Shown here in pieces: positions 863 through 39,816 of a DNA stretch of 39,816 nt. The stretch is from Escherichia phage BA14: the sequence record NC_011040.1. One strand, written 5' to 3'. The stretch's first letter is position 1; each line of letters begins with the position of its first letter. The translations under genes were made by a program, and so were the position numbers. The notes beneath the pieces are model-generated. The model worked only from the letters and a program-made list of their open reading frames with translations. It was not told where the DNA came from and did no database searches.

Positions 863-988
863 GTACCGGAAACATACATAACGTTCTTGTGAGGTCACAC
901 ACTGAAAGTGACTCGGTGCTAACAAACCTGCACTTAAAGCTCTTTAACAATTTGGAATAGCACTCTTGAGATGGCGGCACTAGCGATT

Positions 989-1022
989 AACTCAAGGTGA
1001 CTCGAAAGAGAAGCCTTTATGA
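989..1022 (+). promoter_or_regulatory. Possible RNase III-type hairpin upstream of gene 0.3 (R0.3 position)
   Basis: aACTCAAGGTgactcgaaagagAAGCCTTt shares the AACTCAAGGT...GCCTT motif of the clearer hairpins at 6301, 6821 and 13571, but pairing is imperfect. Confidence 0.3.
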
Positions 1023-1049
1023 TAATCACTGCAACTGAGGAACCATCCC

Positions 1050-1811: not shown

Positions 1812-2912
1812 ATGAACTACACCGACATTCAGGCACGTCTGGCAATCATCAAGTCCCTCCCGATTAGCGAACTGGACAAGCGCCAGACTCTTCTGGTTGC
1901 ACTGGCTGCTGACATCGTGAACGGTGAGACAAGCGATGGCAACGACACTGAAGGCTCAAATGGCTTGGAGTATCAGGACTGGTGGAACACCTTGGGCGCT
2001 CTCATGCGTGATGCAGGTTTCCGCATGTTGGGTAATGGTCACTTCAGTGCGGCCTACTCGCACGAAATGTTACCGGGCCGAGTCATCAAGGTTGGCTTTA
2101 AGAAAGAGGATTCAGGCGCAGCATACACTGCATTCTGTAGGATGCACCAAGGCCGAGCGGGTATCCCTAACGTCTATCACGTAGCACGTCATGCAGGTTG
2201 CTATACGGTTGTTCTTGACAAGCTGGTAGCATGTGACCGCGATAATTATGACCATGAGGTATACGCTGACCTCGCACGTTACTTTGTGGAGTCGGATTGC
2301 CATGACGCAAGCGACTTTGCACCGGGTGACTACGAGTTCATTGAGACCTGCCAGCTTATCCGCAAGTTCTTCAAAGGGATTGCATCGTTTGACATGCACA
2401 GCGGGAACATTATGTTCTCTGAAGATGGCACACCATACATCACTGACCCGGTTAGCTTCTCACATGACCGTGAACGTGAGGACGGCTTCCCTCTGGACCC
2501 GGATGCACTGATTGCCGAGGTCGAGGCAATAGCTAACGAGCGCATGATTGAACGTTGTCGCAACCGCAAGGCCAAGCGTGACCCTAACGGAACCTTTCAG
2601 GTTAACCACAAGGCCGCAATGAAACGCCGCAAGCGCAACCGTAAGCTGCGTGCCAAACGTGGTGCCGAGGTTGCACAGCACTTTGTACAGCGTAGACATG
2701 AACAAAAGCAGGAACTAAGGGACGCTATGAGGGCGCAAGATTGGATGGGTGCGCACAACTGGCACAACATGTGGTTACACAACAACAATGCAGACGTAAT
2801 CATGATTGACAAGGTGAAAGCCTTTGAGTGGAAACAGGCAGAACGCATGGCTCTTATGCAATGCCGCTCACTTCCAATCGACAAGTTACTTGACGCACAA
2901 CTGCAAGGCTGA
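1812..2912 (+). CDS. 0.7: Serine/threonine protein kinase, host shutoff (gp0.7)
   Basis: 366 aa; conserved blocks GNGHFSAAYSH, RVIKVGFKKEDSGAAYTAFCRM, HSGNIMFS and YITDPVSFS match T7 gp0.7 as I recall it. Confidence 0.9.
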   Translation: MNYTDIQARLAIIKSLPISELDKRQTLLVALAADIVNGETSDGNDTEGSNGLEYQDWWNTLGALMRDAGFRMLGNGHFSAAYSHEMLPGRVIKVGFKKEDSGAAYTAFCRMHQGRAGIPNVYHVARHAGCYTVVLDKLVACDRDNYDHEVYADLARYFVESDCHDASDFAPGDYEFIETCQLIRKFFKGIASFDMHSGNIMFSEDGTPYITDPVSFSHDREREDGFPLDPDALIAEVEAIANERMIERCRNRKAKRDPNGTFQVNHKAAMKRRKRNRKLRAKRGAEVAQHFVQRRHEQKQELRDAMRAQDWMGAHNWHNMWLHNNNADVIMIDKVKAFEWKQAERMALMQCRSLPIDKLLDAQLQG

Positions 2913-2926
2913 TAAGGTGTATCTTC

Positions 2927-2951
2927 AAGGTCGGCACTGACTGCTGGCCTT
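2927..2951 (+). promoter_or_regulatory. RNase III-type hairpin upstream of gene 1 (R1 position)
   Basis: AAGGTCGGCA-ctgac-TGCTGGCCTT forms a 10-bp stem with G-U pairs; 35 nt upstream of the RNAP start. Confidence 0.5.
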
Positions 2952-2985
2952 TATAGATAAACTTTCTTAACAACGTGAGGCAACA

Positions 2986-5644: not shown

Positions 5645-5667
5645 TAATACGACTCACTATTGGGAGA
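5645..5667 (+). promoter_or_regulatory. Phage RNAP promoter TAATACGACTCACTATTGGGAGA
   Basis: Full 23-bp match to T7-family consensus except T at -1; transcript begins with a GGGAGACCC...GGGTTTCCC 5' stem-loop. Confidence 0.85.
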
Positions 5668-5727: not shown

Positions 5728-6285
5728 ATGTTTACTTTCATCACTTCAGTAGGCGCTCTCGTATCAACCATTCTTGCAGCAACATACTATAATCGTTCAA
5801 AGGTATTTCTCACTAAGCTAATCAAAGAAGAGAAGAACTCTCATGCACTCAAAGAGAGACTTGAAGATGGATGGCGAGAGAAGCAGGAACTAGCTGGTCG
5901 AATCCGTACCTTAGAGTTCGAACAACAATATGACATGTCGAACCAACGAGAACTCATTGAGCGTCTACGTGCTGAGGCAGTGGAGTACCGCAAGGAACTT
6001 AAAGAAGCCAAGAAGATTATCCGTGAGTATACACACAGTGACATCACGTCTATCAAGTTTACTGCTCACATCCCGGATGCTGGATGGAAGCGCACTGAGT
6101 TCAAGCTGGGTCTTGGCTCGTGTGGTAAGCAAGTCACATGTCTACATTGGGTTGAACAAGCCGACCGCTATCTGCTGACACAGACGTGCACTGACGGTGA
6201 GCGCAAAGAGTTCACCTACTATAAGAAAGATGTAGCGGGTCGCATTGAGATTGCACGTAAGGTTGCAGACAATACGACTCACTAA
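5728..6285 (+). CDS. Hypothetical membrane-anchored coiled-coil protein (gene 1.05 position)
   Basis: 185 aa from ATG 5728 preceded by AGAGGAAAC RBS and a TTAACTTTA epsilon-like motif; N-terminal TM helix, charged heptad-rich middle, Cys-containing C-terminus; sits between gene 1 and gene 1.1. Confidence 0.7.
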   Translation: MFTFITSVGALVSTILAATYYNRSKVFLTKLIKEEKNSHALKERLEDGWREKQELAGRIRTLEFEQQYDMSNQRELIERLRAEAVEYRKELKEAKKIIREYTHSDITSIKFTAHIPDAGWKRTEFKLGLGSCGKQVTCLHWVEQADRYLLTQTCTDGERKEFTYYKKDVAGRIEIARKVADNTTH

Positions 6286-6292
6286 TGGGAAA
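6270..6292 (+). promoter_or_regulatory. Phage RNAP promoter cAATACGACTCACTAATGGGAAA (phi1.1-like)
   Basis: T7-family promoter core; the stop codon of the upstream ORF (6283-6285) lies inside it. Confidence 0.8.
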
Positions 6293-6300
6293 CACTGAAA

Positions 6301-6343
6301 GTTAAACTCAAGGTCATCACTTCTGGTGGCCTTCATGATTAAC
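6301..6343 (+). promoter_or_regulatory. RNase III-type processing hairpin (R1.1 position)
   Basis: Lower stem GTTAA/TTAAC, internal loop, upper stem AAGGTCAT/GTGGCCTT; same element recurs at 6821 and 13571. Confidence 0.6.
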
Positions 6344-6376
6344 TGTCATTAACTATACACACAAGGAAACAACATT

Positions 6377-6526
6377 ATGCGTACCAACTTCGAACCAACT
6401 ACCAAGCGCAACAACGTAATCAATGAACACGGTGCTGAATGGCAGGAACGTAAAGACCGCATGAAGAAACGCCACAAGACACAACGTGGCAACGCTGAGA
6501 AACGTAACTGGAAGGAGGCACTCTAA
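6377..6526 (+). CDS. 1.1: Small basic protein gp1.1
   Basis: 49-aa ORF (below the ORF-track cutoff) with RBS AAGGAAAC; highly basic, as for T7 gp1.1; stop overlaps the gene 1.2 start (TAATG). Confidence 0.6.
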   Translation: MRTNFEPTTKRNNVINEHGAEWQERKDRMKKRHKTQRGNAEKRNWKEAL

Positions 6527-6798
6527 TGGGTCGCTTATACAGTGGTAACTTAATAGCATACAAAGACGCTATCGAACGACTCAAAGAAGACCACGATGTG
6601 AGTGTGGTCGTTGAGACTTTCCGCTATGAGAACTATGCGAGGATGCGCTGGGTATCAGGTGAGACTCTTCGAGTGGTCTTGCGGAATGGATTAGTGTTAA
6701 CCTCCAAGTGTTTCGAACAGGACGATGAAGACGTTCGCTGCAATGCACAGACTGAATGGCTTCGTAAGGTACACAGTGACCTGAAGCACTGGAAGTAA
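6526..6798 (+). CDS. 1.2: gp1.2, inhibitor of host dGTP triphosphohydrolase
   Basis: 90 aa; N-terminus MGRLYSGNL and C-terminus DLKHWK match T7 gp1.2 as I recall it. Confidence 0.8.
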   Translation: MGRLYSGNLIAYKDAIERLKEDHDVSVVVETFRYENYARMRWVSGETLRVVLRNGLVLTSKCFEQDDEDVRCNAQTEWLRKVHSDLKHWK

Positions 6799-6818
6799 TA
6801 CGACTCACTAATGCGAGA
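6796..6818 (+). promoter_or_regulatory. Phage RNAP promoter TAATACGACTCACTAATGCGAGA (phi1.3-like)
   Basis: T7-family promoter core overlapping the gene 1.2 stop; initiating region GCGAGA is atypical. Confidence 0.7.
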
Positions 6819-6820
6819 GA

Positions 6821-6862
6821 GCTAAACTCAAGGTCATCTATACGGTGGCCTTTGTGATTAAC
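6821..6862 (+). promoter_or_regulatory. RNase III-type processing hairpin (R1.3 position)
   Basis: GCTAAACTCAAGGTCATctatacGGTGGCCTTTGTGATTAAC, second copy of the 6301 element. Confidence 0.6.
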
Positions 6863-6899
6863 TTTTGTTTACTTAATAACCAACAATAGGAGTTCCATC

Positions 6900-7976
6900 A
6901 TGGAAATCACATTCAAGACTAACCCTTTTAAAGCTGTATCCTACGTTGAGTCTGCCATTAAGAAAGCACTCGACAAAGCTGGCTACCTGATTGCTGACAC
7001 TAAGCATGATGGTGTACGTGGTAACATCGTGGTTGACAATACGGCTGACTGCCTGTGGCTATCCCGTGTCTCCAAGACCATCCCCGCGCTTGAGCACCTT
7101 AATGGGTTCGACCAACGCTGGGCTAATGTTCTCAAAGATGACCGCTGGATTTTCCCTGATGGCTTCATGCTTGATGGTGAACTGATGGTCAAAGGCGTAG
7201 ACTTCAACACAGGGTCTGGCCTACTGCGTACCAAGTGGCTCAAGAAGACAAACTGTGGATTTGATATTGGTGGAGTAGAGCCTCTCAAGGGGAGTAAAGT
7301 AGACTTCTGCTTAGACCCTAAGAAACTTAAGGTTGTCCTGTATGCTGCTATGCCGTATCACGATATGGTAGAAGGCAAAGAGTATGGCGTTATGTCCCTC
7401 CTGATGCAAGAGCATGTGCGTTACCTCATTCCGGTTCTTAGTGAACACTTCCCGGAAATCACTTGGGAACTATCTGAAGCCAAGGAAGTCTACGACATGG
7501 TAGAACTTCAGGAACTCTACGAGAAAGCTCGTGCTGAAGGTCATGAAGGTCTGGTTGTCAAAGACCCGCTGGAAGTCTACAAGCGTGGTAAGAAGTCTGG
7601 CTGGTGGAAGATGAAACCTGAGAATGAAGCTGATGGTGTTATCGTTGGCCTCAATTGGGGTACTCCGGGTCTCGCTAATGAAGGCAAAGTGATTGGCTTC
7701 GAGGTTCTCCTTGAGTCAGGTCGCGTAGTTAACGCCAACAACATTAGCCAAGAGTTGATGGACGAGTTCACCGAGAAGGTAAAGGAGAAGACACTAAGTG
7801 ACTGTGGGTTCTTCAGTCCATACGGAATCGGAGACAATGATGCCTGTACGCGTAACCCTTATGAGGGCTGGCAGTGTCAGGTAGCCTACATGGAGGAAAC
7901 ACCAGACGGTTCTCTGCGTCACCCATCGTTCGTTATGTTCCGTGGTGTCGAGTCAGACCCAACGGTCAAGATGTAA
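6900..7976 (+). CDS. 1.3: ATP-dependent DNA ligase (gp1.3)
   Basis: 358 aa; adenylation motif TKHDGVRG near the N-terminus; length and position as T7 ligase. Confidence 0.95.
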   Translation: MEITFKTNPFKAVSYVESAIKKALDKAGYLIADTKHDGVRGNIVVDNTADCLWLSRVSKTIPALEHLNGFDQRWANVLKDDRWIFPDGFMLDGELMVKGVDFNTGSGLLRTKWLKKTNCGFDIGGVEPLKGSKVDFCLDPKKLKVVLYAAMPYHDMVEGKEYGVMSLLMQEHVRYLIPVLSEHFPEITWELSEAKEVYDMVELQELYEKARAEGHEGLVVKDPLEVYKRGKKSGWWKMKPENEADGVIVGLNWGTPGLANEGKVIGFEVLLESGRVVNANNISQELMDEFTEKVKEKTLSDCGFFSPYGIGDNDACTRNPYEGWQCQVAYMEETPDGSLRHPSFVMFRGVESDPTVKM

Positions 7977-7986
7977 ATCAACATAT

Positions 7987-8020
7987 GGTCAGACTTTCGG
8001 GTCTGGCCTTTTCGTGTTTC
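7987..8020 (+). terminator. Intrinsic terminator after ligase (TE position)
   Basis: GGTCAGAC-tttcgg-GTCTGGCC 8-bp stem followed by TTTTCGTGTTTC. Confidence 0.6.
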
Positions 8021-9071: not shown

Positions 9072-9091
9072 TAGGACTCACTAATGGGAGA
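9069..9091 (+). promoter_or_regulatory. Phage RNAP promoter TAATAGGACTCACTAATGGGAGA (phi2.5-like)
   Basis: T7-family core overlapping the gene 2 stop; 5' leader GGGAGAcactaacgTTTCCC can fold. Confidence 0.75.
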
Positions 9092-9139
9092 CACTAACGT
9101 TTCCCACTTTTAACTTTCAGAAACTAAAGGAGAATCATT

Positions 9140-10830: not shown

Positions 10831-10850
10831 TAGAACTCACTATGGGAGAG
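10828..10850 (+). promoter_or_regulatory. Phage RNAP promoter TAATAGAACTCACTATGGGAGAG
   Basis: T7-family core with G at -1; transcript starts with a GGGAGA...TCTCCC stem-loop. Confidence 0.65.
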
Positions 10851-10900
10851 CCGAAAGGTTTCTCCCTTTGTTCGCTAAAATTGTATAAGGAGTAACCACT

Positions 10901-13263: not shown

Positions 13264-13566
13264 ATGGCTATTAAATTCCCCGGCAATACCATCCGTCTGT
13301 CCGATACCGTTGACCAGTATGCTCGTCGAGTGCACATCAACGTCCGTAATGGCAAGGTCACTCTGGTCTACCGTTGGAAAGACCATAAGTCCACCAAGGC
13401 GCACACACAGCGTGTAACTCTGGATGATACACAGGCAGGTCGTCTGCTGGCTTCCGTTGCTGTAGCCGCTACTGTGGCTGTAGGTGAAGACAAGGTTCGT
13501 GGTGTCCTGCTCGGTAAGACCGTCGAAGCTGAGGGCAACATGCTGGCTGAGAAGTCTGAAATCTAA
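13264..13566 (+). CDS. Hypothetical protein (gene 4.5 position)
   Basis: 100-aa ORF with upstream AGGAG; position between 4.3 and the R4.7/phi4.7 elements. Confidence 0.55.
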   Translation: MAIKFPGNTIRLSDTVDQYARRVHINVRNGKVTLVYRWKDHKSTKAHTQRVTLDDTQAGRLLASVAVAATVAVGEDKVRGVLLGKTVEAEGNMLAEKSEI

Positions 13567-13570
13567 AAGA

Positions 13571-13611
13571 GTTAAACTAAAGGTCATCTCCGGGTGGCCT
13601 TCGTGATTAAC
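13571..13611 (+). promoter_or_regulatory. RNase III-type processing hairpin (R4.7 position)
   Basis: GTTAAACTAAAGGTCATctccgGGTGGCCTTCGTGATTAAC, third copy of the 6301/6821 element, immediately upstream of a phage promoter. Confidence 0.6.
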
Positions 13612-13624
13612 TTTTGTATGAAAA

Positions 13625-13647
13625 CTATTCAACTCACTAATGGGAGA
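13625..13647 (+). promoter_or_regulatory. Phage RNAP promoter (ctattcAACTCACTAATGGGAGA)
   Basis: Core ACTCACTAATGGGAGA with degenerate upstream half; 9 nt upstream of the next ATG. Confidence 0.6.
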
Positions 13648-13655
13648 ACAACACT

Positions 13656-14072
13656 ATGCGTAATCGTAATGTAATCGAAGCTGAAATCTCTAAGCTGCAA
13701 ACTGAACTGGCTGATGTCAAAGAGTATGAATGTGCTCGTGACTCTGCGGTACACATCCTGAAGAACTTAGGGTGGACTCGCTCCCGTGGTCAATGGGTGA
13801 AACCTAAAGCCACTGGCGGTAGCGTTGGCTGTCAGACCTTTGATGCAAACAAGATGACTCACCTTAAGGCTGGGGACTTCTGCACCTTCACCAGCAACGC
13901 AGACATCTGGTATGTCCGTAAGGTCGAAGGGACAGACATTTGGTGCTCCCGTGTGACACGCATTGATGCAATGGGTACAGTCGCTGGGATTCAGTATCAC
14001 AAGATGAACCACAAGAACCTGCGAGTGATTGACCCGAAGAACTTCATGGGCTATCGCCGTTCAACATTTTAA
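13656..14072 (+). CDS. Hypothetical protein (gene 4.7 position)
   Basis: 138-aa ORF directly after the promoter; size and position as T7 gp4.7. Confidence 0.65.
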   Translation: MRNRNVIEAEISKLQTELADVKEYECARDSAVHILKNLGWTRSRGQWVKPKATGGSVGCQTFDANKMTHLKAGDFCTFTSNADIWYVRKVEGTDIWCSRVTRIDAMGTVAGIQYHKMNHKNLRVIDPKNFMGYRRSTF

Positions 14073-18070: not shown

Positions 18071-18129
18071 TGTTCGCAATCGTAGCCTTCGCTATGGTGT
18101 GGGCTGCATTTATAGCTAAGAGTGTGTAA
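18070..18129 (+). CDS. Possible 19-aa hydrophobic peptide (gene 6.3 position)
   Basis: ATG overlaps the gene 6 stop (TAATG); MFAIVAFAMVWAAFIAKSV; very short, weak support. Confidence 0.25.
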   Translation: MFAIVAFAMVWAAFIAKSV

Positions 18130-18157
18130 CTCTAGGCATTCTTCTCGACAGTGAAAT

Positions 18158-18180
18158 TAATACGACTCACTATTGAGAGG
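18158..18180 (+). promoter_or_regulatory. Phage RNAP promoter TAATACGACTCACTATTGAGAGG (phi6.5-like)
   Basis: Full T7-family match through -1; initiating GAGAGG. Confidence 0.8.
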
Positions 18181-18232
18181 GGTGCCTATATGATACCTAC
18201 TTTAAGTTCTAACTTTAAGGAGAACATTAATT

Positions 18233-26186: not shown

Positions 26187-26216
26187 CCGTAAACACCCCC
26201 CGACTCATTTAGTGAA

Positions 26217-26239
26217 CAATACGACTCACTATTGGGAAG
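26217..26239 (+). promoter_or_regulatory. Phage RNAP promoter cAATACGACTCACTATTGGGAAG (phi13-like)
   Basis: T7-family promoter between gene 12 and gene 13. Confidence 0.8.
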
Positions 26240-26267
26240 GGGTTTTATACTATAGGAGAGAAACTCT

Positions 26268-35849: not shown

Positions 35850-36111
35850 CGATAAATCTTTGATTCAATTCCTTGAGATGCTGGACACTGAGATGGCTCA
35901 ACGTATGCTTGCTGACTTGCAGAATGATGAACGCCGAACACCTCAACTGTACAACGCAATAGGGAAACTGTTAGAGCGCCACAAGTTCCAAGTCTCCAAG
36001 TTACAGCCAGACCGTAACATCCTTGGTGGACTTGCTGATGGCCTAGAAGAGTACCAGAACTTGGTAGGCTCCGATGGTCTGACTGAAGACGAGAAGTACA
36101 CGCTGAACTGA
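35842..36111 (+). CDS. 18: Terminase small subunit (gp18)
   Basis: 89-aa ORF overlapping the holin end, RBS GGAGGG; size and position of T7 gp18. Confidence 0.8.
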   Translation: MSNDKSLIQFLEMLDTEMAQRMLADLQNDERRTPQLYNAIGKLLERHKFQVSKLQPDRNILGGLADGLEEYQNLVGSDGLTEDEKYTLN

Positions 36112-36122
36112 TGGTAATACTC

Positions 36123-36146
36123 AAGGCCACTACATCTAGTGGTCTT
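36123..36146 (+). promoter_or_regulatory. RNase III-type hairpin (R18.5 position)
   Basis: AAGGCCACTA-catc-TAGTGGTCTT, 10-bp stem, between gene 18 and gene 18.5. Confidence 0.5.
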
Positions 36147-36209
36147 TATGAATTATCAACACAACTCACGGTGACGCTACGTGAAATCTGAGAAATGGGG
36201 AGGGTAGTT

Positions 36210-39622: not shown

Positions 39623-39816
39623 TCTCATAGTTCATACAAAGTGTTTACCCCCTATGGCCTCCTTCAGTTCCCCAAAGAGTGCCACCCCTTATGGTAACTT
39701 ATGGTTTACTTAATGTCAATCATTATGTGAGACATTGGGTGAATCATTGGGATGACCACTAGATATAGTGTGTGGGAGACCTTATGACCACTATATGTAG
39801 TCCTCTCTGTGTCCCT
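39623..39816. repeat. Right direct terminal repeat (exact copy of 1-194)
   Basis: Identical to bases 1-194. Confidence 0.95.

Follow-up and report, generated by a model that had tools for sequence, protein, structure and literature searches.

T7-type RNase III processing hairpins predicted in the genome of Escherichia phage BA14

The genome of Escherichia phage BA14 (NC_011040.1; our window is the whole record, 39,816 nucleotides long) contains three near-identical hairpins, together with three looser relatives, which very probably act as T7-type signals at which RNase III processes the polycistronic mRNAs of the phage; the near-identical hairpins would be the orthologues of the T7 sites R1.1, R1.3 and R4.7, and the looser ones those of R0.3, R1 and R18.5. 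A preliminary description of the sequence had proposed such sites in the R1.1, R1.3 and R4.7 arrangement, a proposal supported here by homology, by a covariance model (CM) built from T7 alone, by gene context, by the known recognition determinants and by covariation. The feature is in itself already known, as it is a textbook trait of the T7 group and is annotated in phages T3 and phiYeO3-12. In T7, the host RNase III has ten cleavage sites on the polycistronic transcripts, early and late, and these often adjoin promoters (PMC4858673, PMC6938266).

Three near-identical hairpins and three looser ones

The six elements are listed below with their CM scores and their folding results, where z compares the predicted fold with dinucleotide shuffles.

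6297..6348, + strand: putative R1.1-type RNase III hairpin; CM 51.3 bits, E 2.9e-10; fold -18.1 kcal/mol, z -4.4
6817..6867, + strand: putative R1.3-type RNase III hairpin; CM 48.0 bits, E 2.1e-9; fold -14.5 kcal/mol, z -2.1
13567..13616, + strand: putative R4.7-type RNase III hairpin; top CM match, 53.9 bits, E 6.5e-11; fold -19.2 kcal/mol, z -4.6
981..1032, + strand: putative R0.3-type RNase III hairpin; CM 43.5 bits, E 2.8e-8; fold z -3.1
2914..2966, + strand: putative R1-type RNase III hairpin; CM 43.0 bits, E 3.9e-8; fold -19.6 kcal/mol, z -4.8
36110..36161, + strand: putative R18.5-type RNase III hairpin; CM 41.5 bits, E 9.4e-8; fold z -5.0

The core sequence TAAACTNAAGGTCAT occurs without mismatch at 6303, 6823 and 13573 and nowhere else in the genome, and the arms of the three main copies share 39 to 42 of 47 bases (83-89%). 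The preliminary description had thus correctly placed three near-identical elements, at 6301, 6821 and 13571, although their paired regions are slightly longer than it had indicated, with the limits given above; its consensus also holds overall, except that the 6301 copy reads CCTTCATGATTAAC / CATGATTAAC, with an A at 6335, one base off the proposed (C/T)GTGATTAAC. Of the looser relatives, one had been offered as a mere possibility (989-1022); the CM places all three, this one included, at 981-1032, 2914-2966 and 36110-36161. They diverge from the main copies in the upper part of the hairpin, the R0.3-type element carrying a 2x2 mismatch and the R18.5-type element a GGCC/GGUC pairing as in T7 R18.5.

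The main copies lie close to promoters of the phage RNA polymerase, whose consensus ACGACTCACTA(A/T)TG(G/A)GA is found 13 times in the genome, for 0.44 copies expected by chance. The three promoters in question are the following.

6270..6292, + strand: promoter phi1.1, +1 = G6287; reads CAATACGACTCACTAATGGGAAA, among the 13 consensus matches; same position as the phi1.1 annotated in Kvp1
6796..6818, + strand: promoter phi1.3, +1 = G6813; overlaps the stop codon of gene 1.2; matches the phi1.3 annotated in Kvp1
13625..13647, + strand: promoter phi4.7, +1 = G13642; 3' of the R4.7-type hairpin; T7 phi4.7 (13915) likewise lies just past R4.7

The hairpin at 6297-6348 sits between phi1.1, whose +1 is 10 nt upstream, and gene 1.1 (start at 6377), and it aligns with T7 R1.1 and with the annotated R1.1 stem-loop of T3; the one at 6817-6867 sits between phi1.3, whose +1 is 4 nt upstream, and the ligase gene 1.3 (start at 6900), which is the position of R1.3 in both T7 and T3. 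The third, at 13567-13616, directly follows the stop codon of gene 4.5 (13564-13566) and ends 26 nt before the +1 of phi4.7, itself followed by gene 4.7 (start at 13656), in the same order as in T7. This is the promoter arrangement that had been noted beforehand, with two hairpins after a promoter and one before. Among the looser copies, the hairpin at 981-1032 lies 18 nt upstream of gene 0.3, where T3 has its annotated R0.3; the one at 2914-2966 is flanked by gene 0.7 (kinase) and gene 1 (RNA polymerase), and the one at 36110-36161 by gene 18 (stop codon 36109-36111) and gene 18.5 (Rz-like spanin).

When the open reading frame (ORF) map of BA14 and its PHROG identities are compared with the feature tables of T7 and T3, the six sites therefore fall at the T7/T3 positions of R0.3, R1, R1.1, R1.3, R4.7 and R18.5, all of them intercistronic and on the sense strand. 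The neighbours of the main copies follow the T7/T3 order (1.05/phi1.1/R1.1/1.1, 1.2/phi1.3/R1.3/ligase and 4.5/R4.7/phi4.7/4.7), and so do those of the looser copies, with R0.3 before 0.3, R1 between 0.7 and 1, and R18.5 between 18 and 18.5.

Relation to T7 and T3 sites, and the expected cleavage

The CM was trained on seven T7 sites (R0.3, R0.5, R1, R1.1, R1.3, R4.7 and R18.5), T7 R3.8 being dropped because it was misaligned in the model alignment; no BA14 sequence was included, and the entire genome was searched with filters off. The model replaced a scan for the AAGG...CCTT pattern, which had yielded many chance matches in coding regions. It returned just the six elements already mentioned in the preliminary description, at 41.5-53.9 bits (E 6.5e-11 to 9.4e-8), the next-best match on the + strand of the whole genome having an E-value of 8.6. 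The reverse strands of the same six loci scored 13.6-17.3 bits, to be compared with 41-54 bits on the + strand. Applied to other phages, the CM recovered, at the annotated coordinates, 8 of the 10 RNase III stem-loops annotated in T3 (R0.3, R0.5, R1, R1.1, R1.3, R4.7, R6.5 and R18.5); it also detected T7 R6.5, which was held out of the training set, as well as the equivalent sites of phiYeO3-12, and 285P showed an identical set of six canonical matches. It gave no match to IMG/VR loci located on unrelated large contigs and carrying the bare AAGGTC...GTGGCCTT pattern.

The BA14 copies also align directly with R1.1, R1.3 and R4.7 of T7 and T3, as can be seen for R1.1 by comparing the BA14 copy at 6301 (GTTAAACTCAAGGTCATCACTTCTGGTGGCCTTCATGATTAAC) with its counterparts in T7 (ACAAACTCAAGGTCATTCGCAAGAGTGGCCTTTATGATTGAC) and T3 (GTTAAACTTAAGGTCATCACCAACGGTGGCCTTTGTGATTAAC). 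The T7 and BA14 sites share their flanking genes, promoter order and stem-loop-stem architecture, and the T7 flanking motifs ACUCA...CCUU(U/C)AUGAUU are conserved in BA14, whereas the apical pairs, the loop and the sequence of the lower stem differ, mostly by compensatory changes. Other differences are that BA14 has a single promoter, phi1.1, before R1.1, while in T7 the site is flanked by phi1.1A and phi1.1B; that the three sites of BA14 are far more alike than the three of T7; and that cleavage has been demonstrated for the T7 sites, those of BA14 being predicted from sequence. The records of T3 and phiYeO3-12 (NC_003298, NC_001271) annotate stem-loops R0.3 to R18.5 as “RNase III recognition site”, and these phages have the gene order of BA14, with gene 1.05 and the promoters phi1.05, phi1.1 and phi1.3 likewise present; outside the loop, T3 R1.1 is 89-91% identical to the three BA14 copies.

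The determinants read by RNase III in R1.1 have been described by Pertzev and Nicholson as a proximal box of 4 bp (pb1 GC, pb2 AU/UA, pb3 AU, pb4 AU/UA), a middle box of 2 bp (U12:G27 and C13:G26) and a distal box of 2 bp (UA and UG) (PMC1540722). The numbering used in that paper implies the pairing A8-A9-G10-G11-U12-C13-A14-U15 / G24-U25-G26-G27-C28-C29-U30-U31, that is, AAGGUCAU/GUGGCCUU, an 8-bp helix that spans pb1 to pb3 (three of the four pairs of the proximal box) plus the middle and distal boxes. This helix is present in the BA14 copies at 6310, 6830 and 13580, identical to that of T7 R1.1. The remaining pair, pb4, next to the cut, is non-Watson-Crick as in T7: C.U in both T7 R1.1 and the 6821 copy, C.C in both T7 R4.7 and the 6301 copy, and A.C in the 13571 copy.

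Cellular RNase III sites, such as the precursor stems of rRNA operons, are targets of the same enzyme, which recognises about two helix turns (PMC1540722). As a rule, cellular targets are cleaved on both strands and left with 3' overhangs of 2 nt, whereas the internal loop of the phage type results in a cut on one strand that leaves a 3' hairpin. Indeed, internal loops limit RNase III to one phosphodiester, and the leftover 3' hairpin protects the RNA from 3'-5' exonucleases (PMC1540722).

Beyond the homology, structure, synteny, strand bias and covariation observed in BA14, the biology of T7 suggests cleavage, the bond at which it would take place and a stabilising effect on the mRNA. The stretches of about 50 nt would be transcribed by the host RNA polymerase, from the early promoters up to a terminator at about 7987-8008, and by the phage RNA polymerase from its own promoters, and the + strand RNA would fold into the irregular hairpin. 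The host RNase III would bind about two helical turns, made of the upper and lower stems, and read the proximal, middle and distal boxes in AAGGUCAU/GUGGCCUU; the asymmetric internal loop would allow a single phosphodiester to be cut, located on the 3' side and expected at CCUU(C/U)(A/G)U^GAUUAAC. The T7 cuts, at the coordinates used for the CM, fall at CCUU(U/C)AU^GA, on the 3' side of the internal loop, and by analogy we would expect the three main BA14 copies to be cut at U6336^G6337, U6855^G6856 and U13604^G13605. Being single and on the 3' side, such a cut would leave the upstream RNA ending in a protective 3' hairpin, and the downstream mRNA would start some 40 nt upstream of the next start codon for the R1.1 and R1.3 types and 51 nt upstream of it for the R4.7 type. 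At R1.1 and R1.3, the cut would trim the short leader of the phi1.1 and phi1.3 transcripts, so that transcripts made by the host and phage polymerases would acquire a common 5' end. These exact predicted mRNA ends would be of use in mapping transcripts, modelling expression and engineering phages.

One has to consider the slim chance that the hairpins are not cut at all, and that, as enzyme-binding relics of T7-type sites, they stabilise or insulate the mRNA or tune the translation of the next gene. Base pair changes beside the bond that is cut can dissociate binding of the enzyme from cleavage (PMC1540722), and pb4 does vary among the three copies; however, the C.C pair of the 6301 copy is also that of T7 R4.7, an annotated site, and the pb1-pb3, middle and distal boxes are those of the efficiently cut T7 R1.1. 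T7 is able to grow without RNase III (PMC6938266) and cleavage in BA14 rests on homology, yet the sequence of the internal loop, for which a mere stabiliser would have no need, is kept in 63 relatives.

Several points nevertheless weigh against reading these hairpins as RNase III sites. The T7 cleavage coordinates used for the CM (5887, 13892 and others) are those of Dunn and Studier (1983), the T7 GenBank records NC_001604 and V01146, as displayed, listing no RNase III features. They were checked only indirectly, against the hairpin geometry, the T3 annotation and the R1.1 numbering in PMC1540722. The specificity of the host RNase III was assumed to be E. coli-like. A literature search returned no experiment on the RNase III sites of BA14 or of any Berlinvirus, Kvp1 and 285P included, nor any article that reports such sites in this genus, and the GenBank records of the close relatives 285P, Berlin and Kvp1 annotate no such sites. 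The excess of the 6817 copy over its shuffles is modest (z -2.1). Lastly, a search of the whole genome against Rfam at the gathering thresholds gave no match; Rfam apparently holds no model of T7 RNase III sites and, as no family exists there, this result says nothing against the RNase III reading. For want of such a family, the T7-derived CM is a practical annotator for these sites.

Fold, covariation and likeness among the copies

As the preliminary description had it, all six elements fold into a lower stem (6-9 bp), an asymmetric internal loop (ACUCA on the 5' side, (U/C)(A/G)UGA on the 3' side) and an upper stem (9-10 bp) with two U-G pairs, closed by a loop of 4-5 nt. The same architecture is found in the minimum free energy (MFE) and centroid folds of the six elements and in the RNAalifold consensus of 63 sequences, and z-scores range from -2.1 to -5.0. 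The fold is stronger on the + strand than on the - strand in five of the six elements, as expected of an RNA element since it contains U-G pairs.

Intergenic hairpins could also act on the host or phage RNA polymerase as intrinsic terminators or as pause sites, all the more as ACUUUUGU follows the 6817 and 13567 copies; we hold this to be very unlikely. A rho-independent terminator has an uninterrupted G+C-rich stem with an immediate U run, and a terminator scan that flags the early terminator at 7987-8008 flags none of the six. The internal loop and the lower stem stand between the G+C-rich upper stem and the U-rich run, whose bases are themselves engaged in lower-stem pairs. Moreover, two of the hairpins begin 4-10 nt past the +1 of a promoter, and a terminator placed there would defeat the promoter.

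Covariation was assessed on a model-fitted alignment of 77 CM matches (67 distinct) from BA14, T3, phiYeO3-12, 285P and T7-like contigs of IMG/VR. Standard pairs occupy 92.2% of the cells, against 74.4% in shuffled and 35-49% in slid controls; changes on both sides are found in 17 of the 19 pairs, and the covariation score is 0.49, against 0.07-0.12 in slid controls. As this alignment was fitted to the CM, the analysis was repeated in a model-free manner with MAFFT and RNAalifold on 63 distinct sequences, which gave an identical structure with compensatory changes in 14 of 17 pairs. Many loci were gathered with a pattern that fixes 14 bases at the base of the upper stem and are thus weak evidence for those pairs, so that the informative covariation is that of the lower stem and of the apical pairs. 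There, as judged from the aligned sequences, compensatory changes support the predicted hairpin fold.

The similarity of the copies (83-89% in the arms), and the location of T7 R1.1 in the phi1.1A/1.1B region, might call to mind repeats acting at the DNA level, in recombination, in replication or as protein-binding sites, a highly improbable explanation that we rejected on strand asymmetry, since U-G pairs favour the + strand fold in five of six elements and reverse strands score 13.6-17.3 bits rather than 41-54, and on covariation, since compensatory changes retain the pairing and not the sequence.

Returning to the hairpins as RNase III sites, one mildly new point is that the main copies are far closer to each other and to T3 R1.1 than to their positional orthologues. 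BA14 R1.3 is 91% identical to both BA14 R4.7 and T3 R1.1, whereas its identity to T3 R1.3, its positional orthologue, is 59%; in 285P, R1.3 and R4.7 are 98% identical. Between the BA14 copies, similarity stops within a few bases of the hairpin. In a comparison of BA14 with T3 and 285P, sites group by genome and not by position. We tentatively suggest, as a possibility to which we give somewhat less than even weight, that the Berlinvirus hairpins evolve in concert, an R1.1-type copy having replaced R1.3 and R4.7 by intragenomic recombination or conversion over short tracts; the same pattern would arise if RNase III had selected convergently for a short motif, which is an equally simple explanation.

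Other T7/T3 site positions and the genome setting

The T7/T3 sites R3.8, R6.5 and R13 differ in layout and were for this reason compared by direct alignment, outside the CM. Two further candidates, both absent from the preliminary list, came out of this comparison.

10845..10875, + strand: putative R3.8-type site; promoter-proximal hairpin GGAGAGCC-GAAA-GGUUUCUCC, followed by CUUUGUUCGC
18114..18208, + strand: putative R6.5-type site; long hairpin around promoter phi6.5, MFE -37.2 kcal/mol

The R3.8-type hairpin is preceded by a degenerate phage promoter, TAGAACTCACTATGGGAGA (stretch 10832-10875), and aligns with T7 R3.8 and with the annotated R3.8 stem-loops of T3 and phiYeO3-12, with CCCTTTGTTC as common motif. 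The R6.5-type site aligns with R6.5 of T7, T3 and phiYeO3-12; its arms carry the motifs ACUCU-AGGCA / UGCCU-AUAUGAU and it retains the layout of lower stem, internal loop and upper stem. At 18114-18208, the T7 model gave no score better than E=10, so that this assignment rests on the alignment; the CM missed the site because of its long insert. At the equivalent of R13 (about 26198-26244), we found just a weak CCCC/GGGG hairpin around promoter phi13, whose homology is unconvincing; this candidate is doubtful and we do not claim it. R0.5 (R0.45), which T7, T3 and phiYeO3-12 possess, is absent from BA14, where gene 0.3, ending at 1508, is followed by an ORF that starts at 1510, and likewise from 285P.

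BA14, and the Berlinvirus group generally, would thus retain most of the RNase III sites of T7 (R0.3, R1, R1.1, R1.3, R3.8, R4.7, R6.5 and R18.5), which the GenBank records of the group omit; the significance of this beyond annotation is small.

As for the genome itself, an exact direct terminal repeat of 194 bp (1-194 and 39623-39816) indicates that the 39,816-bp sequence of BA14 is the full linear genome of a T7-like podophage, of the Berlinvirus type. Over most of its length, it shares 90-97% identity with the Berlinvirus-type phages 285P, Kvp1, PYPS50, PZJ0206 and CarlSpitteler. Near the hairpins, PHROG matches identify genes 0.3 (SAM hydrolase type), 0.7 (protein kinase), 1 (RNA polymerase), 1.05, 1.1, 1.2 (dGTPase inhibitor), 1.3 (ligase), 4.5, 4.7 and 18.5 (Rz-like spanin). 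One of them is of interest as a context gene, outside the hairpin family.

1812..2912, + strand: gene 0.7, protein kinase; phrog_2828, E 5.7e-179; phrog_15752, “positively regulates RNaseIII”

In T7, the kinase phosphorylates RNase III, which increases the turnover of the enzyme (PMC4858673).

Two side observations concern transcription signals. A strong intrinsic terminator lies at 7987-8008 (GGTCAGACTTTCGGGTCTGGCC followed by a T run), directly 3' of the ligase gene; it is the counterpart of the T7 early terminator TE and of the terminator annotated in Kvp1. Finally, a hairpin of the GGGAGA...UCCC type, similar to the T7 phi10 leader, is found at the start of transcription for the promoters with +1 at 5662, 9086, 12808, 20765 and 33573, and the one at 9085-9106 is rated terminator-like by a simple terminator scan.

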